This document shows, piece by piece, positions 28,202 to 44,692 of a stretch of DNA of 64,000 nt. The translations under genes and the position numbers were made by a program. The notes under the pieces are model-generated. The model was not told the origin of the DNA. It made no database searches and saw only the letters and a list, made by a program, of their open reading frames with translations. Location of the stretch: positions 224,001 through 288,000 of the forward strand of contig CAVSOU010000008.1 of the NCBI GenBank assembly GCA_963729625.1, written 5' to 3'. How positions within the stretch are numbered: the first letter of the stretch is position 1; every line of letters starts with the position of its first letter. This DNA comes from an uncultured bacterium (GTDB taxonomy: Bacteria; Chloroflexota; UBA5177; JANWHV01).

Positions 28202-29485
28202 TCACCACGGTTTATTTGCCTGCGAGCGCGGCGGGATGATGGTGCTGCAGGGCGGCGGCGGCGCGAGTGCAGCCGCATGAGAGCAGAGGGCCAGGCTCAT
28301 CAGGAAGTCATCGTGCCCTTCGCTCGCCGGTACAAAGAAGCGCATCTGCTCGTTGACGCCCAGGTCATACCGCGCCGACTCGATTTCGCGCCGCGCCTGC
28401 CGCCAGGCTTCGCTTCCGTCCTGCCTGTAGAGACGGCAGCGGCCGGTACCAGCCAAGGCCAGCAGCGCGAACCCCAGTCGCGATTTCGACGGCGCGGTGA
28501 AGACAAACTGCTCCACCACCGCGCCCCCGAGGACGCCTTCGAGCCAGGAGGCGACGCCTGCGCCCAGGCCTGTGGCATCCACCACGACCTTTGTGCAGGG
28601 AAAGACGTCGGCCAGCAGGTGGCGAAGCGCATGGTGTTGGGTTGGATGGTCCGCCCCCGACCACTGGTAGTGTTGCACGACCTCCAGCGAAGGCTCGAGC
28701 TCCTCCGTCCAGTGCAGCCGTGCTATCGTGGTCACGGTGCTGTCGCGGCCACGGTCCGCCGCTGCCGGTGCCAGGAGTCCTGGAATTGCCTGAGCGTCCT
28801 GGCCGGCTACGTCTATCCCCGCCACGTAGGTTTCGCCTGCGATGCCCTCGGCCAGTCGCGCGTGTCTGCCTGAGAGCAGCAATGAACGCGTCGCGAGCGA
28901 AAACAGGCGTCCCATCTCCTCGAGCGGCTGCAGGCAGTATTGCGTCTGCACGATCGGATGGTCTGAGCCGAGCCTGGCTATCTCGGCTTCCACGAACATG
29001 CGATAGGCCGGCGAGATTTGTGCCAGCACCTGCCAGTCGTACTCGAAGTGGCGACGTATGCCGTCGCGGTGCTCAAGGGCTAGGTTCACCTGCTTCTGGC
29101 GCTCGAGTGGGTTCGTTGCGTCCCACGCGGTGCCATAGAGCACGATTGGCGCGTTAGTCGAGCTGGCCATGGGGCGGAATTCGCGCTGCACCTTGTCTTC
29201 CTGCAGGTCCTGCGCCTCGTCAAGCTCCAGAAGCACGTCGGCAGTTCCGCCAACGACATGGCTGGCGGGAGCGCCCGAGAGAAAGCGTACGCGGGCGCGG
29301 CCCAGCTCGATCGCATCCTGGCTGGTGCGCACGCAGCCGCGGTTCAGTGGATTGTCAAGCACGCTCAAGAGGCGCTGTCTGCTGATCAGTGCCTGCGGGC
29401 GGAGCGTCGGGGCCGCTTTGACCAGCGTGCCGCCGGTAAACCGGTAGATATTGAGCAGGTACGCTTCGAGCTCCGCTGAAAGCTC
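28202..29485 (-). CDS. Resident large terminase-like gene, 3' part (interrupted by integrated element)
   Basis: Frame open from 29485: ELSAELEAYLL...LELDEAQD (Walker B)...AGIDVAG...HDDFLMSLAL (RNaseH-like nuclease); no own start. Confidence 0.85.
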   Translation of the reverse strand, partial: ELSAELEAYLLNIYRFTGGTLVKAAPTLRPQALISRQRLLSVLDNPLNRGCVRTSQDAIELGRARVRFLSGAPASHVVGGTADVLLELDEAQDLQEDKVQREFRPMASSTNAPIVLYGTAWDATNPLERQKQVNLALEHRDGIRRHFEYDWQVLAQISPAYRMFVEAEIARLGSDHPIVQTQYCLQPLEEMGRLFSLATRSLLLSGRHARLAEGIAGETYVAGIDVAGQDAQAIPGLLAPAAADRGRDSTVTTIARLHWTEELEPSLEVVQHYQWSGADHPTQHHALRHLLADVFPCTKVVVDATGLGAGVASWLEGVLGGAVVEQFVFTAPSKSRLGFALLALAGTGRCRLYRQDGSEAWRQARREIESARYDLGVNEQMRFFVPASEGHDDFLMSLALCSHAAALAPPPPCSTIIPPRSQANKPW

Positions 29486-29516
29486 AATATAGCTGCGTTG
29501 TGTTGTTTATGATATA
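29484..29516. repeat. Left attachment site (core TC plus arm TGTTGTTTATGATATA)
   Basis: 29501-29516 is the exact reverse complement of 44659-44674. Confidence 0.9.
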
Positions 29517-29661
29517 GCGCAGGACTGCCCCACGGGGGGTACGACTTCGCAACGAGCGCTGTTCAGTACTGCTCACGAGCAGGGACCATCGCCCACATGC
29601 AATTCTCGTGCGCCCTGGCGCATCCTAGAGGCTATTGCACAGCGCAATTGTTCACACTATC

Positions 29662-29750
29662 GGGCCGTCCTCGCGCGCGGGGAGAGCGAGTCATCCAGGA
29701 TATGGGAAGCACGGCGACGACTGGGCCGTCCTCGCGCGCGGGGAGAGCGA
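29662..29750. CRISPR. Mini-array: two identical 28-bp type I-E-like repeats, one 33-bp spacer
   Basis: GGGCCGTCCTCGCGCGCGGGGAGAGCGA at 29662-29689 and 29723-29750; 61-bp period; internal hairpin TCCTCG-CGCG-CGGGGA; no cas genes in window. Confidence 0.55.
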
Positions 29751-29805
29751 AGCGCCGGATCTGCTGGGAATCCGGGGCTTGATCGGGCGACGCGCTTATG
29801 GCCGG

Positions 29806-30015
29806 CTAGTCGGGCTCTACCTCGCCGTCGATCACGTAGCTGCGATGGGTGCGGCGGATGTGGTAGACACTGCGAATGACCGCCAGGTCCTTGTCTATCT
29901 GCCGGCTGCTCATGCCGTAGTGCTCCGCCAGCGTCGCGCGGGTCCAGACGCCCGGCTCACGCAGGATGCGATGGGCGATCTGAACGCGGCGCTTGAAGGC
30001 GGACTTGACGCTCAT
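29806..30015 (-). CDS. Small winged-HTH (HTH_11-like) protein
   Basis: TRATLAEHYGMSSRQIDKDLAVI. Confidence 0.75.
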   Translation of the reverse strand: MSVKSAFKRRVQIAHRILREPGVWTRATLAEHYGMSSRQIDKDLAVIRSVYHIRRTHRSYVIDGEVEPD

Positions 30016-30254
30016 CAGCGCAGCTCAACCAGATAGTCATCAACTGCACCGTACTGTCGGTCGGCATTGACGGCGCGGAATGCGCGGTAGTTGTAGGGTC
30101 CCCAGCCCATGACTTCGGTCACGGCGATCTCGCCAACCTGATAGCGGTGGTCGAGATACTCGAGGTCTTGTCCCGTGACCTTGCTCTGCGGTGCGATTCG
30201 GTCGGTTGTCGCGTTGTAGTCGATGTACGCTGCTGCCCTGATATGCTCGTCCAT
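30015..30254 (-). CDS. Small acidic hypothetical protein
   Basis: RBS GAAGGA; 79 aa; stop overlaps next start (TGATG). Confidence 0.65.
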   Translation of the reverse strand: MDEHIRAAAYIDYNATTDRIAPQSKVTGQDLEYLDHRYQVGEIAVTEVMGWGPYNYRAFRAVNADRQYGAVDDYLVELR

Positions 30255-30302
30255 CGTTCTTCCTTCTGCCCGGTTTCGCCGCCGGGCCCGGCACTGCCTT
30301 GG

Positions 30303-30914
30303 TCAGGCTCGCTGGACGCTCCCATTCCGGGACTGAGCATTGAACACCTTCACCAGCTCGGCGATCTCCGCGGCCGCCTCTTCCTGGGTGACGTTTGGCA
30401 CGATGGAGACAGGGCGGCCGAGGGCAGCCTGCAACTTGCCGATCTTGCTCAGTTGCTCCTGGGTGGCCACCCCTGACGGTACAACACTCGGCTTCGGCGC
30501 CGTGTGCGCGGTAGCCGGCGAAGCGCCTATGGCGGGATACGTGGGCATGTCGTCGTCGCCCAGCTCCTCGAGCGCGGCGCCGCCCACGTTCAGGGCGTCG
30601 CGCAGCGCGCGGGCCTTGGCGCGCGTCTCGGCCATGCGGATGTAGTGGGCGGCGACCATCTTGCCGGTGTTCTGCACATTGGCGTCGCCGATGCCGGTGT
30701 AGGTGCCGGCCTCGGTCGTCACTTCGGCCCAGACAATGGCCGTCCAGGCGTTGACCTCGGTCGGCGCCTGCTCGAGCTGCGTCCGGATGGCCTTCAGGCC
30801 CGAGCGGTGCGCCAGGTCGAGCAGGCCGGCATAGAGCACGAACTCTTTGCCGGCACGCTCGATGACGTAGCGGTGGTCGATCTTCTTGATCGTGCTGATG
30901 GCGTCGCCGTTCAT
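30303..30914 (-). CDS. Putative single-strand annealing protein (Rad52/Sak-like)
   Basis: GKEFVLYAGLLDLAH...YTGIGDA...IRMAETRAKARALRDALNVG; C-terminal ATQEQLSKI tail; family assignment from recall. Confidence 0.55.
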   Translation of the reverse strand: MNGDAISTIKKIDHRYVIERAGKEFVLYAGLLDLAHRSGLKAIRTQLEQAPTEVNAWTAIVWAEVTTEAGTYTGIGDANVQNTGKMVAAHYIRMAETRAKARALRDALNVGGAALEELGDDDMPTYPAIGASPATAHTAPKPSVVPSGVATQEQLSKIGKLQAALGRPVSIVPNVTQEEAAAEIAELVKVFNAQSRNGSVQRA

Positions 30915-30916
30915 GG

Positions 30917-31141
30917 CTACCACCGTCCCTTTGCCGCCAGAGCGTGATACTCGTAGGTGTGGCCATCGTAGGAGTAGTCTAGATCGTGCCGGCGCGCCTC
31001 CGCGAACTGGGCCAGTGTCTCGCGTGCCAAGCAGTCCGGGCAGTGCATGCGTTCCTGCCAGGTGTCGCCGTCCGTGTACGGGTAGCGCTTCTGGCAACGC
31101 AAACACGTTGCCGTGGGATGCCAGGCTTCCTGTGCTACCAT
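30917..31141 (-). CDS. Small Zn-ribbon protein
   Basis: CLRC...CPDC; RBS GAAAGGA. Confidence 0.6.
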   Translation of the reverse strand: MVAQEAWHPTATCLRCQKRYPYTDGDTWQERMHCPDCLARETLAQFAEARRHDLDYSYDGHTYEYHALAAKGRW

Positions 31142-31242
31142 AGTGTCTGAGTCCTTTCGACTCGGTGAGCGGCTCCCTAACTTTTCCAGGGTGGGGGAGC
31201 CGTTCGGCGTTTCAGGAGAGCTCATGCGCTCTGCCTGCTACC

Positions 31243-31318
31243 ATTATCTCATAGTGCGCGCGCACTTACAATAGTGTAAACGCACTATCTTGAAAGTGCG
31301 CGCGCGGTGTGCTATCGT
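31243..31318. promoter_or_regulatory. Divergent promoters with three AGTG-N6-CACT-type operators
   Basis: Plus: TTGAAA(31290)-17-TATCGT with TGn. Minus: TTGTAA(31271)-17-GATAAT with TGn. Boxes at 31253-31266, 31271-31288, 31295-31308 (last degenerate). Confidence 0.7.
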
Positions 31319-31337
31319 AGTCTCAGGAGGAGTTGCG

Positions 31338-31553
31338 ATGATGGCCGCAGCAAAGCGCGAGATGCCGCGTGGCGGGAAGCGCGCCAGGAAGGGTACCGGC
31401 CGCGCGCGCTCGAGCGGGCTAAACTTGCTCTTGAGCCCCGACCACAAGGCGTGTTTGACCGCTCTCGCCGAGGCGGAAGGCATCACCCGCACCGCCCTCA
31501 TCGAGCGCTGGATCGACGAGCACAGCTCCCAGCCCACGCAGGCGCCCCAGTAG
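31338..31553 (+). CDS. Ribbon-helix-helix (CopG-like) regulator
   Basis: RBS AGGAGG; LNLLLSPDHKACLTALAEAEGITRTALIERWI. Confidence 0.75.
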   Translation: MMAAAKREMPRGGKRARKGTGRARSSGLNLLLSPDHKACLTALAEAEGITRTALIERWIDEHSSQPTQAPQ

Positions 31554-31759
31554 GCGAATTTCGCGCTAGGGCCTCGAAAGCGGCCTCAGCGTGCCCTAGG
31601 ACCAACGTCACCGGTTCCTATGGTACACCAGGCGTCTGAGTAGCCCGCCTGCGAGGCATTCCTGGTTGCCCGCATTTGCTATTCGCCCTCGTACGGATCT
31701 TCGGCCTCCACGGATGAAGCCGCGCCTGCCACGACTTGGTGTGCGTGCTACGCGATAGG

Positions 31760-32242
31760 TCAGGGCAGAGGCATCTTGGTTTGACCGAGTACCTGAGGCG
31801 CCTCGATCCGAATCCCCGGTATCTGAACCTTACTCAGATCATCGTCCCAGGTTAGCAGAACATCGCAGCGAGCCCGCAAAGCGCAGGCTATATGCAAGGC
31901 ATCGAAAGGCCTTACACCGTAGTTTCGGCATAACCTGTTGGCGTCGATGCCTATCTGCATGTCCACCACAATCCATTGGAACAGCCGTCGCTGAAAGAAG
32001 GCGATCAGCGTATCGTCGTCAGTGCTCAACACGAGGCCAGGACTATACTTATGGACTTCGGCGACAACCGGTCCAGAGATCCAGATATCAAATAGTTTGT
32101 CCTCAGCCTGCGTGAATATGTGTTGCGCGACAGCACCACGATCCACGAGACCGACCTTCTCACCCTTTACCCATCCAATGTAGACACAGGAGTCCAGAAA
32201 TGGGCGCCTATAAGGGCCGGTCAGCGCGCTGTTAGGCGTCAC
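31760..32242 (-). CDS. PIN-domain nuclease (toxin)
   Basis: FLDSCVYIGW...VVAEV...RPFDALHIACA...LLTWDDDL. Confidence 0.85.
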   Translation of the reverse strand: MTPNSALTGPYRRPFLDSCVYIGWVKGEKVGLVDRGAVAQHIFTQAEDKLFDIWISGPVVAEVHKYSPGLVLSTDDDTLIAFFQRRLFQWIVVDMQIGIDANRLCRNYGVRPFDALHIACALRARCDVLLTWDDDLSKVQIPGIRIEAPQVLGQTKMPLP

Positions 32243-33023
32243 GCATCCTCCGTATGTACTCCACAGACTCAAGGCCGCCGGTGAAGTCAGGATCGCTGCC
32301 CCAGAGCGACGCCGTCGTCGGCAGATCGCCGTCAGCGGCGAATGCCGTGAGGCGTTCGGCTTTCACGCGCACCGGCTCGTGCTCCGAATTGATAGCTACC
32401 ATCCCGATCACAGAGACTCTGCCGCCGAGAGCCGACTTAGCCTGCTCGAGTAAGTCTGTTGAAGAGAAGTCACAGGTGACTGCCTTGTGCGTCCAACTGT
32501 GGTATATGGTGAATCTTGGCTTCTGATGGACCGAGATGGCCTCAAGCGTGCCGTCGATTGAACCCAATGCTATGTGACGCACTTGCAACAACTGGGCAGC
32601 GTGCACCGTCGCCTGAGCTGTCAGGTAGAGCTCACGCGTATCGTCCTCATTTACCAGCACGATGCCTGTGACACCCTCCCGGCCGATCAAGCGAAGCACA
32701 CGCTGACAGCGCCGTATGCCAGTCTCGCGGAGATAGGGTGGAGTCATCGCTTGCTGTTCCAGACGCGCAACAGACGTGACGTAAGTCGCGATCACCTCCG
32801 GGCCACAGTCTCGGTCCGCAAGACGAGTCCGAGGACTGATCGCCAGTTCGGCGCTCCCTTCCCGCAGCCCAGCGACGACCCAATCAAGGCTACCCTTCTT
32901 CTCGCCGGAAATAGCTGTGTCGAGTTCCTCCAGAATGGCTTGTGTCTCCCGTAGCGCTGTTATTAGCGCATCCAGCGTGATATTGCCGAGGTCACCCTGG
33001 AGTCGAACCCGCAAGGTCGCCAT
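32232..33023 (-). CDS. Hypothetical protein coupled to PIN gene (candidate antitoxin)
   Basis: 263 aa, overlaps PIN start; C-terminal beta-rich region and DFTGGLESVEYIRRMR tail. Confidence 0.65.
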   Translation of the reverse strand: MATLRVRLQGDLGNITLDALITALRETQAILEELDTAISGEKKGSLDWVVAGLREGSAELAISPRTRLADRDCGPEVIATYVTSVARLEQQAMTPPYLRETGIRRCQRVLRLIGREGVTGIVLVNEDDTRELYLTAQATVHAAQLLQVRHIALGSIDGTLEAISVHQKPRFTIYHSWTHKAVTCDFSSTDLLEQAKSALGGRVSVIGMVAINSEHEPVRVKAERLTAFAADGDLPTTASLWGSDPDFTGGLESVEYIRRMRDA

Positions 33024-33242
33024 GTTAGTGCACCTCTAAATCCCTGCTGTCGTGCTGGATATCGCGTACATGCTAGCACACGCCACATGACCCGGTGCGC
33101 GAAAACAGGCCCGGCGATGGCCACCCAGCCGGCCCAAGACATGTGATCACCGCCCATACAGGGCGCGCATAGCCTGATGCCCGGGCAGTCGCAGTTCGGC
33201 GGGTGGCACCGGCGGAAGGCAACAGCGTGTGGGGTTGCAAAG

Positions 33243-33932
33243 CTACCGATATTTCGGCAGTTTTCCGCCGTCGCGCTCCCGGTGCCAGTCGTGCTCGCCG
33301 CTGCCCATGCCGCGCCACGGGCTCGGCCGGGTGTTCTCCCGCGGTGCCACGGGCAGCACGGGCGGATACTGCTCGCCGAACCAGCAGGCCAGGGCCACGG
33401 ACAGCACCAGATCGTCGTGGATGTTCTCCCGCCAGGCCTCGTAACTGTCGTTCCCGGTGGCGATGTTCACCTTGACCTTGAAGTTGAGCAGCTCCTGCAC
33501 CAGCGTTCCGGCCAGCGTCAGGCCCTCCGCGACCTTCAGCCGCCGGCCCTGGTAGAGCGCCACCAGCGTACTGGCCAGCTCGCGCTTGGGCACCTTCAGG
33601 TCGTAGGAGTTCTCCCGGTTCACCTCGGTCCCGCCGGTAATGGTGATGGCCCGGGGACGCACGCCGGCCGCGCTGAACATGTCGCAGATGGCGGCGCCGA
33701 CTCCGGTCCGGTCGATCACCAGCGGCGTGCTGCGCGTCAGGGGCGGGCGGTCGAGCAGGCCGATCACCTGCTCCACGATGACCGGGTAGCGCGTGCCCAG
33801 CGCCGGCCGCTCGAGGTAGCGCAGGTGATAGTCGTACTCGGCGCGACGGTCGCCTTCGACCTGTTCCACGATGCTGATCGCCGTGTAGTCCTGTGCCTGC
33901 CCCAGGTCCACGCCCACGATATAGTCGCTCAT
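33243..33932 (-). CDS. Terminase large subunit, nuclease (RNaseH-like) domain as separate gene
   Basis: VGVDLGQAQDYTAI, VIDRTGVG, HDDLVLSVALACW; own RBS AAGGAG. Confidence 0.85.
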   Translation of the reverse strand: MSDYIVGVDLGQAQDYTAISIVEQVEGDRRAEYDYHLRYLERPALGTRYPVIVEQVIGLLDRPPLTRSTPLVIDRTGVGAAICDMFSAAGVRPRAITITGGTEVNRENSYDLKVPKRELASTLVALYQGRRLKVAEGLTLAGTLVQELLNFKVKVNIATGNDSYEAWRENIHDDLVLSVALACWFGEQYPPVLPVAPRENTRPSPWRGMGSGEHDWHRERDGGKLPKYR

Positions 33933-33942
33933 TCTGGCTCCT

Positions 33943-34725
33943 TCATCCAGCCCGAAGGCTGGGGCCCTCGGCGAACAGCGGCGCCACGTCCGGCGTCATG
34001 CTGGCCATCACATCGTCATAGCCGAAGAGCTGGTCGACGGTCTCGGAGAACGCGCAGCAGTACTCTTGCTGGTACCACCAGGTGCCGAGCGCCCGCCGCT
34101 CCTCCTCCAGGAAGGCCGACGGGATGCGCGGGCACTGGCTCGCCGGCACCTCGTACCGCTCCCATCCGCTGCCCTCGGTCCACTCCTGGTGGAAGAAACC
34201 GCGCTTGCCGAACGGTGTGCTCAAGCACACGAGCCGCCCGCCGCTGACTGCCAGCATCGGCCTGCACGAATAGTACAATTCGTCCAGACAGCGTGCCGCT
34301 TCGTCGACGGCGAGCAGCGCCACGCCAGAATAGCCGCGCACTGTCTGCTCGGTGCCCGGCAGGCTGACGATGCGCGAGCCGTTCTCGAGCGTCAGTGTCA
34401 GCGCGGTCTCACTTTCGGCCGGCACCGGACGCCCGAGAGCGCGGTACACGCCGATGCACTTCTTGAACAGCTCCGAAGATTGCCGCAGGCTGGGCGAAAG
34501 CAGCAGCACCAGCGCGCCGGGTGTGTAGAGCGCGGTGTGCACTGCCAGCACGCTGGTAATGCTGGACTTACCGCTTTGCCGGCAGCAGTTCAGCAGCAAG
34601 CGCGGCGCGGTCGAGCGCAATACATCCTCTTGCCAGGCGTCCAGGTTCTCGAGGCCGACGGCGCGCGCCAGCCTGCACGGGTCGAGGGCCATAGCCAGGT
34701 CGCCGGCGAAGCTAGCCGTGTCCAT
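33943..34725 (-). CDS. Terminase large subunit, ATPase domain as separate gene
   Basis: DAWQED, CCRQSGKS (Walker A), VDEAA (Walker B), LSTPFGKRGFF. Confidence 0.9.
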   Translation of the reverse strand: MDTASFAGDLAMALDPCRLARAVGLENLDAWQEDVLRSTAPRLLLNCCRQSGKSSITSVLAVHTALYTPGALVLLLSPSLRQSSELFKKCIGVYRALGRPVPAESETALTLTLENGSRIVSLPGTEQTVRGYSGVALLAVDEAARCLDELYYSCRPMLAVSGGRLVCLSTPFGKRGFFHQEWTEGSGWERYEVPASQCPRIPSAFLEEERRALGTWWYQQEYCCAFSETVDQLFGYDDVMASMTPDVAPLFAEGPSLRAG

Positions 34726-35260
34726 TGGAGGCGTCCAGGCGCGCGAGGGCTCCCGCTACGGCGAATTTGGCCTCTGGGTGGGGCTGCAGGGCGTGCAGCA
34801 GCGTCGTGCGAACCTGGAGCCATTCGGGCGACAGCATCACCGCGACCTTGGGCGACTCGTCCAGTTCTCCCAGCAGCTTGGCCTGCAGCTCGATCTGCCG
34901 TTGAATACGGTCAATCGCGCGCAAGGCCGTCCCGGGGTCCCCGGCCTCACCGGCATCCATCAGGATTTGCAGGGTGGCGCTGTTGATGGCCTTCAGTTGT
35001 TGCACGACGTCGAGGGCCTGGCGGGCCTCTCTGGCTTCCTGACGCACTGCCTCTGCGGCAGTCTCAGCCGCGTGCACATCACGCTGCCGCAGTCCTTCGC
35101 CGAGCAGCGCGGGCAAGTGCTCGCTCTTGTGCCTGAAGAGGGCCGTCGCCGACATTCCGTAACATAGCGAAACACTCCGTAACGTCTGGCCTGCGACCAG
35201 CGCCCGGTCAATGTTGGCTCGCCCTTCATGCGTGCATACGCTACAGTTTCGTCCAGGCAT
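34712..35260 (-). CDS. Putative terminase small subunit (Zn/HTH N-terminus)
   Basis: CSVCTH...LRSVSLCYGMSATALFRHKSEHL HTH plus helical region; overlaps TerL ATPase start. Confidence 0.6.
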   Translation of the reverse strand: MPGRNCSVCTHEGRANIDRALVAGQTLRSVSLCYGMSATALFRHKSEHLPALLGEGLRQRDVHAAETAAEAVRQEAREARQALDVVQQLKAINSATLQILMDAGEAGDPGTALRAIDRIQRQIELQAKLLGELDESPKVAVMLSPEWLQVRTTLLHALQPHPEAKFAVAGALARLDASNGHG

Positions 35261-35263
35261 CGG

Positions 35264-36295
35264 TCAGCCCTCTTTCTCCGGCTCCTCCGGCAATAGCCCC
35301 ATCGCGCGCAGGAACGGGCGCGAGCGGGCCGCCAGCCGCATGCAGGCCGCGTACGTCATGACGTTCACGTGATCACCTATCAGGCTGCTCTGCGTTATCG
35401 AGCGGAAGGGGTTGCCGGTATCGGGTGCTTCCATCTGGGCCGTGAACTCCAGCGGCTGGCCGAACACCAGGCGGTTCAGGTTGGCGCGGTTGGGCCTAAA
35501 GCCCGGCACGCCCTCCACGCCGCAGCAGCAACTGGCATCGCTCAGACTGCGCAGGCGGTTCTCGCCGCAGAAGAAGGCGAGCCCGCACTCGTGCGCGGCC
35601 GCCTTGATCGCCGTGTACTCGGCCCGCAGTGCCGCTACGGGGTAGCACCAGTCCGCGCCCACGCGGATCATGCCCGGGCGCTTGCGGCCCCGCTTCATAC
35701 CCTGGATCTCCACGCCGTACACCCCGCGCGCCGCGTAGAGCGGCAGGGCGGCCCGCACGGACTCCACCAGGCCCAGGGAATAGGGGGAAATGCGCACGAT
35801 CACCCGTTTACAGGTTTCGGCCAGCTTAGGCAGCATGTCCAGCCGCTCCGCGAAGCGCGGGGCGCCTGGCTCCAGGGCGTCGTACTGCGGCGCTACCATG
35901 CTCACCTGGGCTACGGCGTTGCAGCGCCGCAGCAGGGCCAGGTACTCCGGCGTGGCGACGAGCTTGCCCTTGGTGCTGAAGGCGAACGGGTAGCCCGTGG
36001 CGGCGAACAATTCCAGCACGGCGTAGCTGGCCCGGTGTTTCTTCTCCAGCGGCTGAAAGGGGTCGCTCATGCCGCCCCAGTGCAGGGGTATGTCCCAATC
36101 ACACCAGCGACAGTCCGCAGTCCGCTTGCCCTGGATGAAGCGGTCTACCGCCGCCACCGACTCCAGAGCCTTCACGTTGTGGATTGAGCCGTTGCGTCGA
36201 GTGAAGCAATACGTGCAGCCATGCGAACAGCCCGCATAGGTGTCGAACCGAACCGGAAGATCGCAGAGCACCAGCTGGGAGCCGCAGCTAGGCAA
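35264..36295 (-). CDS. Radical SAM protein (SPL/photolyase-like clade)
   Basis: DTYAGCSHGCTYCF CxxxCxxC, GGMSDPFQPLE; TTG start after GAGGAGG. Confidence 0.85.
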   Translation of the reverse strand: MPSCGSQLVLCDLPVRFDTYAGCSHGCTYCFTRRNGSIHNVKALESVAAVDRFIQGKRTADCRWCDWDIPLHWGGMSDPFQPLEKKHRASYAVLELFAATGYPFAFSTKGKLVATPEYLALLRRCNAVAQVSMVAPQYDALEPGAPRFAERLDMLPKLAETCKRVIVRISPYSLGLVESVRAALPLYAARGVYGVEIQGMKRGRKRPGMIRVGADWCYPVAALRAEYTAIKAAAHECGLAFFCGENRLRSLSDASCCCGVEGVPGFRPNRANLNRLVFGQPLEFTAQMEAPDTGNPFRSITQSSLIGDHVNVMTYAACMRLAARSRPFLRAMGLLPEEPEKEG

Positions 36296-36923
36296 CTTGG
36301 TCCTCCTCTGTAGAAGGCTTTGGTTCCTCGCGGCCACGAACCAAGGAGGCGAAAGCCTCTTCCCACGGGCCATGTCCGTCGCGGCGGATCACGCCACGCA
36401 CCAGTTCAGCGTCCTCCGCCTTGAAGACCAGCGTGACGCTCGCCTGCTCCCCGCCTAGCTCCGCGCGCAGGCCGGAACTGAAGCTATCCAGCAGGTCCTC
36501 GGGTACGAACTCGCGTCCCACGCCACCAGCCAGGCCATCGAGCATGGCGCGCAGTCCTTCGCTGTCGGTCCGCACCTCGTCCATGAGAGCCTGCAGCCGC
36601 CCGGCGGCCGCGCCGGCCATTGCCGCGATAGGGTCCATGGTCAGCAGCAGTTTGTTCGCCTCGGCTTCGTCCACATCCAGGATCGCAACCTGCCAGGTCT
36701 CATCAGGATCGACATCCTTGCGCAGATGCCCGTCAATCAGCGTCAACTCGCCAGCGCTGTTCGTGTACGCCACCAGCACGGCAGCCTTACCGACTTCTTC
36801 CAGAATGCCTTTCAGCGCGGCAGATTGCGCTTTTGAATGCGTCCTGAAATTCCTTGGATTAGCGGCCAGTTCAGCGGCGCATACCTTGCGTACGTCCACG
36901 ATGCGATCACGTAGCGCGCTCAT
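36288..36923 (-). CDS. ParB/Srx N-terminal domain protein
   Basis: ELAANPRNFRTH, LIDGHLR. Confidence 0.8.
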   Translation of the reverse strand: MSALRDRIVDVRKVCAAELAANPRNFRTHSKAQSAALKGILEEVGKAAVLVAYTNSAGELTLIDGHLRKDVDPDETWQVAILDVDEAEANKLLLTMDPIAAMAGAAAGRLQALMDEVRTDSEGLRAMLDGLAGGVGREFVPEDLLDSFSSGLRAELGGEQASVTLVFKAEDAELVRGVIRRDGHGPWEEAFASLVRGREEPKPSTEEDQVA

Positions 36924-37412: not shown

Positions 37413-37413
37413 C

Positions 37414-37617: not shown

Positions 37618-37725
37618 ATCTCTCTCCTTTCGTTCAAGGGTGGTCGGGCCTGTGGTGGTGAGGACAGGCCCGGCCTCAAGGTGGCCGCCTGGCGGTGGAG
37701 GGCGCACCGGACGGCCGGGTAAATG

Positions 37726-37953: not shown

Positions 37954-37956
37954 GTC

Positions 37957-38178: not shown

Positions 38179-38234
38179 GGGTGGTTTCCTTTCCTGCTAG
38201 ATGCCTGCCGGCTTTGCCGGTCCCTTCCTCCGCC

Positions 38235-38441
38235 TCACTCCTTTCTCGGGGCTTCATGCAGCAAGCCCAGTCGATGCGCTTTCCTGAGTGCGGCGCGCAG
38301 GTAGCGCTCGGAGCAGCGACAGCGGGCAGCCGCCAGCCGGATAAACTCCCGCTCGTTGTACGGCCAGGGCAACTGTGCGCAATTGCGCACATGCTCACTT
38401 GCGGCGCCGTGTATTCGGTGGTCTACGTTCGCGGTGTTCAT
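38235..38441 (-). CDS. Small hypothetical protein
   Basis: ATG overlaps stop of 38438-38734. Confidence 0.45.
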   Translation of the reverse strand: MNTANVDHRIHGAASEHVRNCAQLPWPYNEREFIRLAAARCRCSERYLRAALRKAHRLGLLHEAPRKE

Positions 38442-38734
38442 CGGACACACGCCAGGCGCGGCACGTTGGCCAGTTCCAGCGCGCGTAGGGCCTGCTCGGC
38501 GCGCCGGCCCTGTAGCACGAGTGTCCGCTCCCAGCCTTTCGGCATGTCGCGCAGCGCAACCGTTACCTTGGGCGCTGGCACCCACGTTCCGTCGTCGCAG
38601 AGCACCTCGCCTTGGCCGGGGAAATAGGCCGCGATACAGGCTCGATTGACGCGGAGCATGCCGAGCGTCACGAACTCCGTTTCCTTCCTGCTTGCTTCTT
38701 TGCGTGTAGCTTTCGCTACGGCTAGGTCGTACAC
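38438..38734 (-). CDS. Hypothetical protein
   Basis: 98-aa ORF co-oriented with element genes. Confidence 0.45.
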   Translation of the reverse strand: MYDLAVAKATRKEASRKETEFVTLGMLRVNRACIAAYFPGQGEVLCDDGTWVPAPKVTVALRDMPKGWERTLVLQGRRAEQALRALELANVPRLACVR

Positions 38735-38894
38735 TTAGTCTGTTCCCTTCACTTCCGCCGCGGCCGGCCAGGGCCACGGCATGCTCATATCCGTCGTGGT
38801 GCGCTCTTTCAGTAGCGCCACCAGCTCGGGTTTTCTGTCCGCCAGCCAATCATGACTCGTCCACTCCTTCACATTTTCATTTCCTATCAGCACG

Positions 38895-38960
38895 ACTTCA
38901 GCACTTCGCGAAGTGCTGAAGTGTGCTGAAGTCCGCTGAAGTCCGCTGAAGTCGCGCTAA
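38895..38960. repeat. Putative replication origin: 28-bp palindrome plus iterons
   Basis: ACTTCAGCACTTCGCGAAGTGCTGAAGT (38895-38922); GCTGAAGT at 38915, 38925, 38935, 38945 (10-bp period); directly downstream of primase-helicase. Confidence 0.7.
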
Positions 38961-38970
38961 AAGCACACAT

Positions 38971-41100
38971 TCAGAAGGGCTCCTCGTCACTGCCTATCGG
39001 GAAGTACCTGGAGTCGCTGCTTTTGGCCTTGCCGGCATGCCGTAACAACCCTGCTTGCTCCAGTCTCAGCAGGCACTTCGCCAGCACGCGATCTTGTTGA
39101 ACACCGCTGCGAACCTTAATGTCGCCGTAGGCCCACCCGGCGGGCGGCGCGTTTTGCAGGGCCTCATAGACGGCTCGCTCGTCAGCGGAAAACGCCGTCT
39201 TCGTCGGGTCCACGCCTTCGCGGTCGTTCGCTACCAGCACGGCTGTCCTGACGTCGCGCGCCGGGTCCGTGAACTCCTTCAGGTGGTAGAAGTGGTTCGG
39301 GAACTGGGGCGAATTGCTCCCGGCAGCCCATGACACGGTGATTGTGCCCAGTTCGTCTTGAGCCAGTTTGATGCACTGCGTCACGCCGGCCAGCAGCACC
39401 GTTGAGCCCCGCATCCGGTCGCTTTCGGCCCAGCCGGAATGATGGACGAGCATGACGTGCGCGCCGGTTTCGCGCCGCAGTATGTCGACGCCTCGAATCA
39501 GGTCCTGCATGTCCTTGGTCGAGTTCTCATCGCCCAGGTTGCACCGGCTTACCGTGTCGAGGGCGAACAGTGCGGGCCGCTGGAGTCCGGCATCAGCGAG
39601 CGTTCCTTGCAAGACCGCCAGCTCCTCTGCGATGGCCACGTAGACAGGCTGCGTGATGACTACCAGGTTGGGAATGGTCTTGCCGCCGTTGTAGGTCGCG
39701 CACCATGCGTACAGGCGGTCGCCGAACTTCCGAACGTTGCCTTCCGCCATGACGATGACCACCGGTCTACCGGTCGTCACGGCCACGCGGCAGGCTATCT
39801 CGACGACCAGGAACGTTTTCCCTTTACCTATTCCTGCAAAGAGCAGGCTTGCTTCGCCCCCCACGACGTATGGCTCGTAGAGATAGGTGGGCTTGAGCTG
39901 AGCGAGCATCTCTTCTATGCTCCAGAACTTGAAGCGACGGGGCGGTTCCATACTCTCTGCGTGAGCGTTGTGCGGAGAATCCGGTAAATACGCTGCATTG
40001 CCGTTCGGACTCGCGTGTACGTCGCGAACGCTCACCATGCCGCCGTACCCTTGCGTGGCCAGCGCCGACGCCGCGCGAGTCCAGTCGCTGCCGTGCTCGA
40101 GTGCTGCGTAGATTTGGAAAGGAGCGTAGCCGCGGCCAGGCTCGAATATCGGCCAAGACGTGCTGAACTGCACAAGGATAGGCACGCCGTTCAGCACGCG
40201 GATATCGCCAGAGCTCCCGTCTCTCGGGTCCTTGCCCGGTCGCGTGATTGTCGCTCCGACCCCGGTGGACCAGGTTCGCACGGTCGCGCCGGCCTTGCGC
40301 AGCAGGGCTTCGACGTCCGCCAAAGACGCTCGCTCGTTGTAGGCGTCCCCGGGTCGTGTGCCGCCGTCGTGGCGGCTCGAACGCCCCGCTCGCCGGACAG
40401 CGGCCGCCTGCGCCGCGTGCAGGAACTCCATGCCCTCATTGAACTCGCCTGCTATCTCGATGAGCAGGTCGCGCTCCTGCAAGGTCACTGTCGGGGGATT
40501 GAGGGGATCGCCCTGCACGACTTCGCAGCCCACCATAGGCCAGAAGATGCCGTAGCCACCGTCACCTCGACTCTCGATCAACGGCTCTCGCTTGACCCTG
40601 GTGGGATCGTCTTCGTCCGGACTGTAGGCTGCCGCGAATACCTGGTTCCCGGATAGCTCGCCCCCGTACCGGATCGGAATATGGAGCCCTCCGGACTTAG
40701 AGCGCCACATAAGCAGGCGCCCATACAGCCCAGGATTCCGCTCTCGCACCCGGTTGCAATAGTGCTCGACGCGCTGGGCATCCTGGCCCTTGAGATCTAT
40801 CTCGAACAGTTCCAGGGCCTCGCCCAGCGGCCTTTGCTTGCCGTAGACGATGGCCGCAACGTCGGCCCCCTGCCCCGGCCAGGCGTCGAATTCTGCCGGC
40901 GTCGCCAGCCGTTCCCGGAATGGAGCCCAGGTCCGCTTCAGCTCGCCCGTTTCCGGGTCGAGCCTGACTGGAAGCGCATCAAAGCGCGGTTGCTTGGTGC
41001 TGGTGCTGGCGGGGAGAATGCTGATATTGGCGGCCAGCAGCTGCGCTGCCATCCGCCAGTTCGGTGGTGTAAGGACGGGACCAGCGGGCGCGGCGCTCAT
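38971..41100 (-). CDS. Bifunctional primase-polymerase fused to AAA/RepA-type helicase
   Basis: SKSGGLHI, IESRGDGGY (prim-pol); AGIGKGKTF, FALDTVSR, VHHSG, MRGST (AAA_25-like); C-terminal wHTH. Confidence 0.85.
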   Translation of the reverse strand: MSAAPAGPVLTPPNWRMAAQLLAANISILPASTSTKQPRFDALPVRLDPETGELKRTWAPFRERLATPAEFDAWPGQGADVAAIVYGKQRPLGEALELFEIDLKGQDAQRVEHYCNRVRERNPGLYGRLLMWRSKSGGLHIPIRYGGELSGNQVFAAAYSPDEDDPTRVKREPLIESRGDGGYGIFWPMVGCEVVQGDPLNPPTVTLQERDLLIEIAGEFNEGMEFLHAAQAAAVRRAGRSSRHDGGTRPGDAYNERASLADVEALLRKAGATVRTWSTGVGATITRPGKDPRDGSSGDIRVLNGVPILVQFSTSWPIFEPGRGYAPFQIYAALEHGSDWTRAASALATQGYGGMVSVRDVHASPNGNAAYLPDSPHNAHAESMEPPRRFKFWSIEEMLAQLKPTYLYEPYVVGGEASLLFAGIGKGKTFLVVEIACRVAVTTGRPVVIVMAEGNVRKFGDRLYAWCATYNGGKTIPNLVVITQPVYVAIAEELAVLQGTLADAGLQRPALFALDTVSRCNLGDENSTKDMQDLIRGVDILRRETGAHVMLVHHSGWAESDRMRGSTVLLAGVTQCIKLAQDELGTITVSWAAGSNSPQFPNHFYHLKEFTDPARDVRTAVLVANDREGVDPTKTAFSADERAVYEALQNAPPAGWAYGDIKVRSGVQQDRVLAKCLLRLEQAGLLRHAGKAKSSDSRYFPIGSDEEPF

Positions 41101-41330
41101 GACCGCATACCCGCGACAGCAAGCGCTCGAGCGATGCGCTGCTCAGCAGGAAGGCTCGTGTCTCCCAGGATCGCGACGGCACGTCGCGCACGATAACCCG
41201 AGAGAAGACAATCACGCTCTCGCAGTAAGCAGGACACCTCGCGCGTCAAGCTGACAATCCGTCGCTCCAAGCAGAGAGCTTCGGCGCTTGCCGCTGTGGT
41301 AGGATTAAGGTTGTGGAGCGGTGCAACCAT
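41097..41330 (-). CDS. Small hypothetical protein
   Basis: RBS GGAGG; stop overlaps primase start. Confidence 0.5.
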   Translation of the reverse strand: MVAPLHNLNPTTAASAEALCLERRIVSLTREVSCLLRERDCLLSGYRARRAVAILGDTSLPAEQRIARALAVAGMRS

Positions 41331-41508
41331 CACCACCTCCACGCTTCCCGCCGCCGGCCTGACTCGCTGGCGGCTTGCTGTCCTGGTGGGAGCGTTCACC
41401 CTGGCGCTTCCGCAGGTTGAGCCAGCCCTCGAAGACGGCCGCTGAGATGTCTTGCAGGGCTGCCTCGGGACTGATGGGCGCGGTGTCGGTTTGCGCAAGC
41501 GCAGCCAT
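41305..41508 (-). CDS. Small hypothetical protein
   Basis: Start overlaps stop of the HTH gene. Confidence 0.5.
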   Translation of the reverse strand: MAALAQTDTAPISPEAALQDISAAVFEGWLNLRKRQGERSHQDSKPPASQAGGGKRGGGDGCTAPQP

Positions 41509-41732
41509 CAGACTGCGGCCTCGTACCGGTGGCCTTCGTCGGGCGTGAGGCCGAGCGCTCGGTCAATTTCGGCTGTCGGAACGAGAATCCTCTTCCCTGC
41601 ACGGATGACACGTACGGGAAACTCGCCCCTCGCGGCCAGCTCATAGCCGGTGCCGGGGCTAATCCCCAGGCGCCGCGATGCCTGCGGAATGCTTTGTGTC
41701 GCGCGTGCTGGCTTTGCGGTAGCGTTCGACAT
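41508..41732 (-). CDS. Excisionase/AlpA-like HTH_17 DNA-binding protein
   Basis: SIPQASRRLGISPGTGYELAARGEFPVRVIRAGKRILVP; RBS AGGAGG. Confidence 0.85.
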   Translation of the reverse strand: MSNATAKPARATQSIPQASRRLGISPGTGYELAARGEFPVRVIRAGKRILVPTAEIDRALGLTPDEGHRYEAAV

Positions 41733-41874
41733 ACGCGCTAACCTCCTTTTCTGGACTGTGCGGTCTTATGCCGCTAAGTCCAATTTAGGCCGGTTTAGGC
41801 GCTATGTATGTACGTATCTCGCGTGACACGGCACTTTCGTACTACGAATATCCGGTGTCACGAGGAAGCGTATA

Positions 41875-42840
41875 TCAGGCGGGAGAGGGTACCGGGTCGT
41901 TCTGGCGAAGCCACTTCTCGGCATAGCGCCGTCGCTCCCGTTCGACCCGTGCTGATTGGGTGTCTGCGAGCTGGCAGTACTTCTTCACGTAGGCGATCCG
42001 TGTTACGCGGGGGTTCTCCGCCACAGCGTCGAGCCAGCCATTATAGAGGCGCACATCCTCTAGGTATTTGTCCTTGCTGACCGTAGTAGGTCGCAGGGTT
42101 TTTGTTCGGTACCGTTCAACCTCCCGGAATGCCCTCGCGAGGTCTTCGCGGAGGTCGTCCACGTCGGCATAGAGGCCGGGAGTCATGAAGATAACCACCT
42201 GCGGATACCCCTGGCGTACGAGGTTCCTGTCGGCGTAGACTTGCCTCGTTAGGTGCAAGGCCGTCTTGGCAACCCTTTTAGGTTTCCCTGCCACTACTAA
42301 GGTTGCCTCGGGAGCTTCTATGTACGCCAACCCTTCGTCTTCGTCACGTGCCGGCGCGTATTCTGCAAGCCATACCTCAACATGCGTATGTGAAGGCGCC
42401 GCGCCTGTCCCGCCGATAGGCAGGAATGGGGGATCCTCGTCGAGGTCAGCAAGCAGTTGCTTCAGAGCAATGTCCCAGGTCTCCCGTATGGCTATATGTA
42501 AGGTGGCCTCGACCATATCCGCTGCTATCGGGGTATACCGCTCGTCGTTCACAATACCCGGGAACTGGGCGGTTATCCGGTACTCTTCCTCCGCGATCCA
42601 CGGGTATTGCGCACTCGTGCCGTTCCGTACAAGGGCCTCCGCAAGGTCGGGACGCAGGTTGGTCGCATCCATAGCACGGCATATCAGCCGCGAGTGCGAC
42701 TCTGCCAGCGCGCGCTGAAGAAGCTGGTATTCACCCAATGCAGTGCCCCAGGCGCGTACAGCACTGAGGGAGTACCGCGGCCTAGCCCACCATTCGGCAG
42801 GCTTTTCATACTTCAGGCGGGATACACTGAAATCAGCCAT
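41875..42840 (-). CDS. Hypothetical protein, possible element regulator
   Basis: 321-aa ORF between integrase and Xis-like gene. Confidence 0.6.
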   Translation of the reverse strand: MADFSVSRLKYEKPAEWWARPRYSLSAVRAWGTALGEYQLLQRALAESHSRLICRAMDATNLRPDLAEALVRNGTSAQYPWIAEEEYRITAQFPGIVNDERYTPIAADMVEATLHIAIRETWDIALKQLLADLDEDPPFLPIGGTGAAPSHTHVEVWLAEYAPARDEDEGLAYIEAPEATLVVAGKPKRVAKTALHLTRQVYADRNLVRQGYPQVVIFMTPGLYADVDDLREDLARAFREVERYRTKTLRPTTVSKDKYLEDVRLYNGWLDAVAENPRVTRIAYVKKYCQLADTQSARVERERRRYAEKWLRQNDPVPSPA

Positions 42841-42909
42841 CGCTCGAGCCCTCCACGCTCGCGATGCGGGCCGGTTCTGTCGCAAGCAGACCGGCCTACC
42901 TACTTGATC

Positions 42910-44623
42910 TTACTTCTTGGCGACCAGCCCGGCACGTTTCCGCGCCATGTAGCGCCTCATCGCCAGCGCATGGAGTTGCTTGGACGTCAGATGTTCCGGT
43001 GACTCGACGTTGGGGCCAACGATGACTTGTTCCGCGTCGATGAGTACCTGCAGCGGCTTAGTCCATACGACCTCGGCGCGCAGCCACGTTGACCGCAGTT
43101 CAGGCACGCGCTCAACGATGGTCGCGCTTTCGACGAACATCAGGGCGAGGTTTCTAAGCTCCCGCTCCATGTCATTGGCGACGTACTGGTCGATGAGCCT
43201 CGTCAAGGCGGACTTTCTCGAACTCCGCATGGAGCGCTTTCGCGTCTGCCGGCGTCGGCGCGGGTGCCGGCAGCACAGCGAGTTCACGCTCAATACTGAC
43301 TATCTTGTCGCTCAGCTCGTTACTGCCGCGGCGATAGGCGGCCACTTCCTGCGGCGTCGGGGTATCGCCCGCCAGCAGTGTGAAGTTCTTGATATGCCGC
43401 TGGAGTTCGTCTTTCGCTACGTCGAGCCGCTTCCGGAGCAGGGGGCGCGGATCTACTGTCGGTGTAACCGTGCTCGCCGCCCGCGATAGGTCCCACGACT
43501 TGAACTGGATCCGCTTGATCTGGGCAAGTACCGCCTCATGCGCAAAGCTTGCCACGTAGTGTGACGGCTTGCAGACGGCCTCGCCGTTGGCGTGCCGTAC
43601 GCAGACATAGGTGGGCCGGTGCTTGCTGGCAGGATCTCGCACGCGGCTAATGACCATGCGGCCGCCGCACGTGCAGCGCAGCAGTCCAGCACACAGGGGA
43701 ACAGGCTGGTCGGTCAGTCTGCCGCGGAACTGCCCCGTGCGTGCATCCGTCAGCCGACGCTGCACCTGATCGAACGTCGCTTGGTCGATGAGCGCTTCAT
43801 GCTCGGCTGGAACCGTGAACTCGCTTCCATCCTCGCATCGCTCGAAGCGACCGGACGGCTGCGCGTTATAGCGAAGGTGTCCAACATAGACCGGATTGCG
43901 CAGAATGTAGTTGAGCTTATCTGTCCTCCACGTCAGGCCCTTGGGCGACTTCGGGCAAGCCGGATCGTTATTGGCCCAGCGTGCCAGCTCGAGTAATGAC
44001 TGACCAGACGCATACCGCGTGTACAGCTCAGTGACGAACGACGCTGCAGGCTCGTTGCGGGTCAGTGTGCCGGCTTGGTAGCGCCCGCCGCCGGTCCGCT
44101 CCTGATAGCGCAGGACATAGCCGAAGGGGACGATGCCGTGATGCTTGCCTTCCCGCACTGAACGCTCCAGACTGGGGCGGACGCGGCGTGCGAGCTCCCG
44201 GCTATATTGCTCGGCCATGCCGCTCCGTACGAAGCGCATGATACCAGGCTCCTCGGTCCCCTCTCGGACGGAGATGAGCTTGACTCCCAGATTCTCCATC
44301 TCGCGGCAGCGGACGATCAGCTCGCCGCCATCGCGCCCGAGCCGGTCGAGTTGGTGCACGATGACAGCGCCGATGGTCCCGCTTCGCACGGACGCCAAAA
44401 GTCGCTGGTAGCCATGACGAGTGAGCTTGTGGCCGCTCTCGAAATCGCTTTCCATCTGCGCGACGTCGAGCCCGTGCTCGGCTGCGTAGCTCCTGATTGC
44501 CTCCTCCTGAAGTTCTGGGCTGTAACCGTCGCTCTGCTTGAGCGTGCTGACTCTGATATAGCCTGCTGCTCTTGTCGCGACCGCCGGGAGTGCCGTCAAG
44601 CGTCGTGCTGGTGCTGTCATCAC
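42910..44623 (-). CDS. Large serine recombinase; probable frameshift near 43215
   Basis: GYIRVSTLKQ, HQLDRLGRD, PFGY, ILRNPVYVG, LLRCTCGGRM Zn ribbon, coiled coil; ORF 43172-44623 appears to continue in the 42910-43293 frame. Confidence 0.92.
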
Positions 44624-44658
44624 GTCCTCCTTCGGGGACTCTCTCCCCTTAAGAGAAT

Positions 44659-44692
44659 TATATCATAAACAACACTAACAGGTAAATAGTTC
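44659..44692. repeat. Right attachment site (arm TATATCATAAACAACA plus core TC)
   Basis: Inverted partner of 29501-29516; overlaps a minus-strand TGnTATAAT element upstream of the integrase. Confidence 0.9.

Follow-up and report, generated by a model that had tools for sequence, protein, structure and literature searches.

The phage satellites described so far follow two packaging strategies: phage-inducible chromosomal islands (PICIs), P4, PLE, PICMI, and VEIME borrow the large terminase subunit (TerL) of a helper, whereas capsid-forming PICIs (cf-PICIs) and the Mulch/Flayer satellites encode TerL together with a whole head (PMC10085698, PMC10690885, PMC9618062). The terL gene is the core gene separating cf-PICI from PICI (PMC10085698), the Streptomyces satellites MulchRoom and MiniFlayer, of the Mulch/Flayer type, harbor genes for the small terminase subunit (TerS), TerL, portal, and capsid (PMC10690885), and marine satellites possess small-subunit terminases, the large subunit being presumed to be supplied by the helper (PMC9618062). 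Moreover, the EPIPs, 11-kb satellites of Mycolicibacterium aichiense, encode a tape measure, an adaptor, a stopper, and a scaffold, and no TerL (10.64898/2025.12.02.691453). All the statements on published systems given here and below are limited to the available passages of the cited sources. In this work, we analyzed a stretch of 64,000 nucleotides (hereinafter the window; G000:C8:224001-288000, i.e., positions 224,001 to 288,000 of contig CAVSOU010000008.1) from the assembly GCA_963729625.1 (5.4 Mb, 87% complete) of an uncultured Chloroflexota bacterium. The window embeds a 15,207-bp segment (~29,481-44,690, minus strand) which, judging from its sequence, appears to be an integrative element, still intact, of the large-serine-recombinase type; it splits a resident phage-like terL gene located beside a head-tail gene cluster. 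We consider it rather probable that this element is satellite-like and self-replicating, that it possesses its own complete terminase with a two-piece TerL, and that it landed in a conserved terL gene whose interruption is tolerated by the host.

The comparison with the known systems revealed several similarities. The element resembles the PICIs of the pac/SaPI type (PMC10085698) in its size (15 kb), in the gene order (integrase, regulator/Xis-like, primase-helicase, origin, accessory genes, TerS-like), and in having no head/tail genes; an integrase (of the serine type), an AlpA/Xis-like protein, and a primase-replicase with a putative origin are indeed found within the ~10-18 kb that characterize such islands. 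However, it differs from them in its full TerL, its serine recombinase, its phage-type target gene, and in having no known helper; PICIs by definition use the TerL of the helper, whereas the element encodes its own TerL ATPase and nuclease. The cf-PICIs and MulchRoom/MiniFlayer share with it the presence of both terminase subunits, but they also encode the major capsid protein, portal, scaffold/protease, and head-tail connectors, none of which was found in the element. The EPIPs are likewise small and harbor a serine integrase and TerS, and their tape measure has a match in an insert of the related genome G001 (see below); unlike them, the element of the window (genome G000) possesses TerL and no tape measure. 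As for the mode of insertion, the element recalls skin (in sigK), SPbeta (in spsM), and gin (in gerE), where a large serine recombinase, an intragenic position, and an exact reconstitution of the gene also occur (PMC5025042, PMC4191935, PMC5595907). Targets of this type are needed just in cells without descendants, which might also hold for a lysis-linked particle cluster; however, those targets are sporulation genes and not a phage-like terL, and the element of the window embeds replication and packaging genes. Literature searches, as far as the available passages of the retrieved sources go, disclosed neither a head-less satellite with TerS and TerL nor a recombinase insertion in terL.

Results

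Insertion of the element in the resident terL gene

The original prediction had proposed that an element resembling PICIs, which harbors TerS and TerL genes and lacks head genes, is integrated in a large terminase gene beside a capsid/tail cluster. Both ideas were borne out, the former by the gene order and the Pfam and PHROG scans, the latter by the two terL pieces flanking the element and by the TerL fold of the orthologous protein of the congener G003. The location of the ends (29484..44692) also held, apart from a small correction to 29,481/29,484 and 44,687/44,690. On the contrary, the integrase is not a tyrosine but a serine recombinase (Resolvase, Recombinase, and Zn_ribbon_recom domains), and the supposed single TerL of the element consists of two open reading frames (ORFs), coding for the ATPase and the nuclease.

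The N-terminal terL fragment (44689-44878, minus strand) belongs to a 67-aa ORF (44675-44878) lying upstream of the recombinase gene, which runs through Walker A (...ARQMGKNE) and then into the element. On the minus strand, this ORF terminates with ...TVMMARQMGKNEL (...MMARQMGKNEL at the protein level), and the sequence then enters GTGTTGTTTATGATATA. At the opposite end, TATATCATAAACAACAC is followed by ...ELSAELEAYLL, with which the C-terminal fragment opens, in frame with a 388-aa ORF (28202-29368); the frame of this C-terminal terL part (28202-29483, minus strand; phrog_5909, 1e-4) is open up to the junction. Thus, the insertion point falls within the Walker A codons (GKNE/LS, the slash marking the insertion), between Glu and Leu/Ser. 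The N-terminal fragment shares 69% identity with the corresponding fragment of G001 and covers approximately residues 26-87 of the intact G003 TerL, and the C-terminal part is 76% identical to that of G001 and 71-72% identical to those of the congeners G004 and G003.

The attL site (44659-44692) includes the terL half-site, a candidate core (GA at 44692-44691 or CT at 44689-44688), and the arm repeat GTGTTGTTTATGATATA (44675-44659); the attR site (29481-29516) includes the arm TATATCATAAACAACAC (29516-29500) and a candidate core (GA at 29485-29484 or CT at 29482-29481), followed by the other terL half-site. The two 17-nt arms (29500-29516 and 44659-44675) are exact reverse complements of each other, and this inverted disposition is that of the attP arms of a serine recombinase. 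The in-register identity between the two junctions is limited to the 2-nt GA (Glu codon) and CT (Leu codon), and the G001 junctions have GA alone in common in register; the core dinucleotide was placed via the orthologs (candidates GA/CT), a gap-free symmetry score having left it unplaced. The 15,207-bp size derives from the junctions and from the in-silico excision, in which joining at either dinucleotide gave a 1,470-nt, 489-aa ORF that shares 340 identical residues with the 512-aa TerL ORF of G003. The uninterrupted terL occurs in two congeners, G003 reading ...MMARQMGKNELSAHIEAYLL and G004 the same with V for I. An empty site was also detected in a 256-nt soil-metagenome contig (run X2, depth 2.4, ~92% identity) in which a single letter separates 29479 from 44688; the sides of the other joints retrieved from public runs were just 20-23 letters long, and these joints were treated as noise. 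Two alternative types of integration were rejected: the window has no tRNA gene that might have been the target, and no long direct repeats are present at the ends, which are of the serine-recombinase type. The recombinase domains, the inverted attP half-sites at a short core, the empty target, and the in-silico restoration of the gene were all found, as in elements moved by large serine recombinases. The recombinase itself (43172-44623, minus strand, 483 aa) matches Resolvase (4e-27), Recombinase (5e-18), Zn_ribbon_recom (3e-6), and phrog_95 (9e-76); its gene starts ~65 bp from attL and is co-directional with the resident terL.

Fold and profile identify the product of the interrupted gene as a large terminase. 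The AlphaFold2 model of the intact G003 ortholog (predicted local distance difference test, pLDDT, 85) retrieved with Foldseek the HK97 TerL 6z6d (2e-15) as the top match, followed by T4 gp17, D6E, and Sf6 (2e-15 to 1e-13), and profile A1 of the resident TerL matches TerL nuclease structures (4e-4). The alignment of the resident protein displays both Walker A (RQMGKN) and Walker B (LLELDEAQ); its identity with the element TerL is ~21%. The homologs of the resident TerL are 1,876, typically of ~488 aa, some of them with PF17289. The closest ones (P0001-P0012, P0067) lie mostly on contigs of 1.7-5 kb, as if assemblies break here, and one homolog (784 aa) harbors an intein domain (PF14890). As long as it is integrated, the element silences the resident terL.

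A terminase with a two-piece TerL

The TerL ATPase-domain ORF (33943-34725, minus strand, 260 aa) matches phrog_7579 (2e-58), phrog_2 (1e-24), and Terminase_6N (4e-5), and the TerL nuclease-domain ORF (33243-33932, minus strand, 229 aa) matches phrog_27743 (5e-44) and, under the curated cut-off, Terminase_6C (6.5e-4). The stop codon of the former is at 33943-33945, and GAAGGAG followed by ATG at 33932 opens the latter in a different frame. Relatives of the ATPase ORF were found in 18 viral contigs (43-66% identity), with both TerL parts located in 13 of them; wherever both parts are present, they are encoded by separate ORFs (13/13 viral and 3/3 genome loci, i.e., 16/16). The GAAGGAG of ribosome-binding-site type with its own ATG and the maintenance of the split in the relatives indicate a lineage trait and not a lesion, and the idea of a frameshifted TerL pseudogene was rejected on the same grounds. 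The TerL of more distant relatives is fused (597 aa in L038, 487 aa in L039).

Directly upstream of the ATPase ORF, which it overlaps by 14 nt, lies an ORF (34712-35260, minus strand, 182 aa) that was assigned as TerS-like on the basis of position and architecture: a CxxC motif and a helix-turn-helix (HTH)-like N-terminus, a coiled-coil/helical middle part, and a conserved C-terminal SPEWLxVR...PEAR. Its homologs occupy the same position in six viral loci and four genomes. It matched no Pfam or PHROG family, and a PDB profile search gave weak HTH matches alone. The complex prediction of the TerS-like protein with the TerL ATPase scored 0.49 versus 0.12 of the best control, which gives weak support: the 0.49 mark is passed by 116 of 157 solved complexes and by two of 215 mismatched pairs, and the scores that pass it at no more than 0.60 belong to just 18 of the 157 solved complexes plus both passing mismatches. 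The contact agreement of the runs was at least 69%, and the pLDDT of the partner at least 64.

Absence of head genes and relatives of the element

The ORFs of the element were scanned against Pfam and PHROGs, and the cargo also against PADLOC and PDB sequences. No portal, capsid, protease, connector, or tail family of Pfam or PHROGs matched the ORFs scanned, nor did PADLOC or PDB sequences reveal any. Apart from the helicase and recombinase genes, the largest ORFs code for 369 aa (radical-SAM-like) and 336 aa. The slot where a portal would follow TerL is occupied by ORF 32232-33023 (minus strand, 263 aa), whose AlphaFold2 model (pLDDT 82) retrieved with Foldseek OB folds (LysRS, Stn1, SSB) and phage DUF6575-type proteins; the idea that it might be a hidden capsid was rejected because the model is an OB fold, and we regard it as cargo. 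The members of this family located are 18, none with a precomputed Pfam domain. The contig of one of them (P0123) measures 15,197 nt, within ~10 nt of the size of the element, and may be the element assembled alone.

Compact elements with a similar gene content were found in other loci. In genome G084, an 11.75-kb island is bounded by a 53-nt direct repeat (96% identity; L064:80-132 and 11832-11884), whose second copy falls inside a tRNA-Arg gene, and embeds genes for a tyrosine integrase, a primase, a helicase, a TerS-like protein, the TerL ATPase, the TerL nuclease, a 340-aa ORF, and a methyltransferase. An exact 123-nt repeat is present at both ends of the viral contig L027 (11,694 nt) and points to a circular or terminally redundant molecule of 11,571 bp; this contig contains genes for an integrase, a primase, a TerS-like protein (DUF5681), and the two TerL parts. 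The same five functions (integrase, primase, TerS-like, and the TerL ATPase and nuclease) are gathered in ~6.4 kb in L028, and the same integrase-primase-terminase set is found in G098 beside a tRNA-SeC gene. According to PHROGs, portal/head genes follow the terminase in six of the 15 viral loci (L024, L031, L032, L033, L036, and L038); the other nine are without such genes, although several of these end at a contig edge. Hence, the terminase clade is common to true phages and to compact head-less elements with differing integrases. A tape-measure-like gene beside a TerS-like one occurs in small head-less elements of G045 (L063:6701-9676) and G001 (L012:16484-18580), and recalls the EPIPs.

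The other genes of the element

The remaining genes, all on the minus strand, and the remaining sites are here listed from the recombinase onwards. A small ORF (42910-43293) adjoins the recombinase gene in the element of G000 and in that of G001 (tblastn, 58% identity across residues 30-125); no family matched it in Pfam, PHROGs, or PADLOC, and it is a candidate regulator or directionality factor. It is followed by a 336-aa ORF (41875-42885) with no match in Pfam, PHROGs, PADLOC, or PDB sequences, by a 74-aa Xis/AlpA-like HTH_17 protein (41508-41732; PF12728, 2e-7; phrog_66, excisionase/regulator, 9e-5), and by a 709-aa primase-polymerase with an AAA_25 helicase (38971-41100; PF13481, 6e-22; phrog_19930, phrog_906, and phrog_239). 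An iteron-like array (38884-38963), which begins 8 nt past the helicase stop and consists of 4.3 direct copies of the 10-nt unit GCTGAAGTCC plus inverted copies, represents a candidate replication origin. Small HTH genes are found between this array and a gene coding for a 211-aa protein with a ParB-like N-terminal domain (36288-36923; weak phrog_498 match, profile positions 35-146, 8e-7), which is followed by the 369-aa radical-SAM-like protein (35264-36373; PF04055, 5e-6, under the curated cut-off; phrog_13321, 4e-11).

Beyond the terminase and OB-fold genes, the element harbors a 170-aa PIN-domain protein (31760-32272; PF01850, 2e-8) and a 267-aa ORF (30303-31106; phrog_22961, 8e-7) whose probable start is residue 65. 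A 49%-identical paralog of the latter lies at G000:C10:502474-503100, so that the genome may harbor another mobile element. In PDB sequence searches, neither the ORFs 30303-31106, 41875-42885, and 34712-35260 nor profile A2 gave a meaningful match, and PADLOC revealed no defence system in the cargo except for a weak WYL-like HTH match. Lastly, two perfect 28-nt direct repeats (29662-29689 and 29723-29750), 61 nt apart, are located in the non-coding end of the element beside attR, and might possibly represent a pac or a regulatory site. The G+C content of the element is ~0.63-0.65, dropping to 0.58-0.61 in the part after TerL.

The resident head-tail cluster

The cluster occupies positions 45069-64000 (minus strand) and continues up to ~68,234, past the window. 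Including terL, which lies at its end, it spans 44.9-68.2 kb, the capsid/tail genes being located at 48.5-64 kb, and its G+C content is 0.66-0.71 in most 1-kb bins between 48 and 64 kb. It codes for an 808-aa protease/scaffold-capsid fusion (60032-62458, minus strand) and an SU10-adaptor-like protein (51084-52184, minus strand); tail-like GDSL proteins, a 719-aa protein, and small ORFs complete its part within the window, on the same strand. A C1-like peptidase, a GH25 endolysin, and, at ~68.2 kb, the portal (phrog_10963, 2e-42) follow past the window (L002:399-4234), also on the minus strand. A Y-family DNA polymerase (IMS domain, 600 aa; 46106-47908, minus strand) represents an extra insert, which is missing between the orthologs of its neighbors in G001. 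With Pfam and PHROGs, neither an integrase nor a repressor nor any replication gene was recognized in the cluster.

Orthologs of the portal and the capsid are present in all four congeners (66-85% identity). In G001, the cluster adjoins the same host genes, coding for sedolisin (76%), metallophosphatase (79%), serpin (65%), and Fe-ADH (73%), whose identities are comparable to those of the cluster genes. The G001 cluster is decayed, with a stop in the portal gene, a capsid gene in three frames, and a frameshifted adaptor and tail gene. An insert of ~47.5 kb (G001:C9:1045427-1092993) precedes the last 73 residues of the G001 capsid; the six query proteins disclosed no recombinase/integrase near its junctions. 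The resident-type portal was found in 81 of the 401 sampled genomes of the phylum (families f22, 25/29; f15, 5/5; f20, 3/3; f1, 4/4) and the resident-type TerL in 137 of them (f18, 9/9; f22, 25/29); these tallies take in the unpublished genomes G018 and G055, on which the f3 and f15 counts partly depend. In G144, which belongs to another family, the order portal, capsid, ..., adaptor, small ORF, and terL is kept over ~14.5 kb, and the distance between portal and terL is 380-450 kb in three genomes of f22. Taken together, these data suggest an old cluster, mostly inherited vertically and maybe domesticated.

Other interruptions of the cluster genes and relatives of the recombinase

The orthologous terL of the sister species G001 is interrupted at the same GKNE/LS codon by a 16.8-kb insert lying in the opposite orientation. 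Its recombinase is 57% identical and adjoins the same small ORF; tape-measure-like fragments, an AAA_25 helicase with a frameshift, and a TerS-like ORF (phrog_645) are also present, whereas no TerL was found in it. This insert need not be a full prophage, because both a tape measure and TerS can occur in EPIPs, whose integrase is likewise of the serine type. G001 also harbors a third, degraded recombinase copy with stops, accompanied by the small ORF and located after a GH5-like ORF (L015:~9100-11452, i.e., G001:C9:~430100-432452); its Pfam match is under the curated cut-off, and its element arm has ACTATTGC in common with the G001 terL insert.

In G144, a 20.66-kb insert (L098:15036-L099:15705) divides terL near residue 195. 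It opens with a 769-aa serine recombinase, which is accompanied by a coupling protein, a relaxase, an Arc-like protein, DUF6414 with an AAA protein, and a CHAT-NACHT-TPR (STAND) protein; it is thus a mobilizable island rather than a satellite. A tblastn comparison of its recombinase with that of the window gave no match at 1e-5. Lastly, in G120 (L101:2430-4349), ~41.5 kb separate the two pieces of the portal (residues 55-415 and 386-511), and a homolog of the recombinase (25% identity, 1.4e-17) lies ~600 bp from the portal junction. The scans of genome and metagenome collections for further relatives of the recombinase retrieved only 23-29% identical proteins, so that the recurrence of the insertion is testable within the genus alone.

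Discussion

The gene content of the element and of its bounded relatives suggests that the primase-helicase and the iteron origin would confer autonomous replication, and that its terminase would combine DNA recognition by the TerS-like protein with a TerL working as separate ATPase and nuclease polypeptides. Since it possesses a terminase and no head/tail genes, the element most likely spreads as a phage satellite, its own concatemers being cut and pumped into the proheads of some helper. In this scenario, terL would represent a conserved landing site, either because its loss is tolerated by the host or because the gene is needed just in cells nearing lysis, and the insertion would not be a dedicated sabotage device; this idea derives from the finding that the conserved cluster is repeatedly interrupted by unrelated serine-recombinase elements. 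Several data weigh against this interpretation. The TerS-like assignment of ORF 34712-35260 derives from position, architecture, and one weak complex score, and a BLASTP comparison with the PHROG-annotated TerS in the same position of L035 gave no match. No recombination directionality factor was recognized among the genes of the element. The terminase clade is also present in complete phages, so that a deletion of head genes is conceivable for this copy, and the 98%-identical copy of the OB-fold gene (P0123) is frameshifted. The sole empty-site contig belongs to a diverged strain, no attP circle junction was found in the parts of four public runs that were covered (6-18% of sampled words, the uncovered parts being uninformative), and the recombinase relatives with readable flanks are two close copies and a degraded one. 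Moreover, no other head module was detected with phrog_12, phrog_533, PF05065, and PF04860 in the 87%-complete genome, nor, by similarity, was a second copy of the resident structural genes in the same assembly; any helper apart from the resident cluster would thus have to be an external one.

This last point leads to the strategy put forward in the original prediction, according to which the element would be a dedicated parasite that disables the resident motor and fills the resident proheads by means of the TerS and TerL it encodes. The resident cluster is indeed the sole head module found in the genome, the gene contents of the element and the cluster are complementary, the same terL codon was struck in two species by related recombinases, and a read-through from the cluster could drive the co-directional recombinase, ~65 bp past the junction. 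However, the excision repairs terL, and the knock-out is thus reversible in principle; the two TerLs share only ~21% identity; and nothing in the sequences appears to tie the terminase of the element to the resident portal. Indeed, the portals accompanying this terminase clade in phages belong to phrog_533, phrog_12, and phrog_2662, whereas the resident one belongs to phrog_10963, and of the nine other genomes with an element-type TerL ATPase just one harbors a resident-type portal and three a resident-type TerL (base rates 20% and 34%). Of the homologs of the recombinase, the 57%-identical G001 copy hit the same codon, but the degraded third copy lies beside a GH5-like gene, and the same-site G001 insert is without TerL and in the opposite orientation. 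In addition, elements that are not satellites also interrupt the cluster (G144, G120). Such a sabotage-and-replace strategy has gained no specific support, and we regard it as unlikely. A related scenario, in our opinion slightly less likely still, depicts the cluster as a vertically inherited system similar to gene transfer agents (GTAs) and the element as its parasite, which would wait inside the terL of the agent and act when the cluster fires, loading the heads of the agent via its own TerS and two-piece TerL. The cluster resembles GTAs in being a head-tail-terminase set with no recognized integrase/replication genes, in lying in the same neighborhood in two species, where it has diverged about as much as the adjoining host genes, and in occurring in most species of whole families; it differs from them in that several of its copies have stops or frameshifts and in that it is known from genes alone. 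A literature search for gene transfer agents combined with Chloroflex retrieved, among the titles listed, none on such an agent in this phylum.

The absence of head genes might also be explained by decay, that is, by a temperate serine-integrase phage that entered terL and later lost its portal-to-lysis genes, leaving no present function. The terminase clade does occur in full phages, and in L024 the portal and the major head protein directly follow the TerL nuclease ORF; the lower G+C content (0.58-0.61) and the cargo-like genes after TerL also fit a loss in this region, and the same-site insert of G001 is itself decaying, with a frameshifted helicase and fragmented tape-measure-like genes. 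Against this stand the recognizable genes of the element, all of which read as uninterrupted ORFs, the intact arms of both att sites, and the bounded relatives (G084, L027), which share the same head-less content with different integrases, unlike what independent random deletions would produce; we thus judge the decayed prophage improbable, to about the same extent as the dedicated parasite. Still less probable, and the least so of the alternatives considered, is a gene-intervening switch of the skin/SPbeta/gin type, in which the element would persist in the germ line and be excised just in cells activating the cluster, rebuilding terL, its own terminase being of secondary importance. A serine recombinase, an insertion inside an ORF, and an exact in-frame reconstitution fit such a switch; cluster genes bear four serine-recombinase-associated interruptions in four species; cells producing particles would presumably lyse, so that the gene would be needed in terminal cells alone; and precedents exist, as far as the available passages go (PMC5595907, PMC4191935, PMC5025042). 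Nevertheless, the lack of a recognized directionality factor speaks against it, the G001 cluster is so full of stops and frameshifts that it offers nothing functional to restore, and the interrupting elements are heterogeneous, with transfer or packaging functions of their own. A satellite-like element with its own terminase, which landed in a tolerated terL, therefore remains the interpretation we prefer.

An element that lacks head genes but encodes a complete terminase would represent a third packaging strategy, beside those of the satellites that borrow the helper TerL and of those that encode it together with a whole head, and raises the question of how a foreign motor docks on a borrowed portal. 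The repeated strikes of serine recombinases on the terL and portal genes of a cluster without replication genes point to a possible GTA-like system, as well as to a new class of landing sites for gene-intervening elements, and a recombinase with short att sites in a conserved P-loop sequence is a ready candidate for integration assays. If the cluster really were a GTA-like system and the element its parasite, the element would be the first GTA satellite, and the cluster genes would be safe sites for serine-recombinase elements in the same way as sporulation and heterocyst genes, being needed in cells that leave no descendants.

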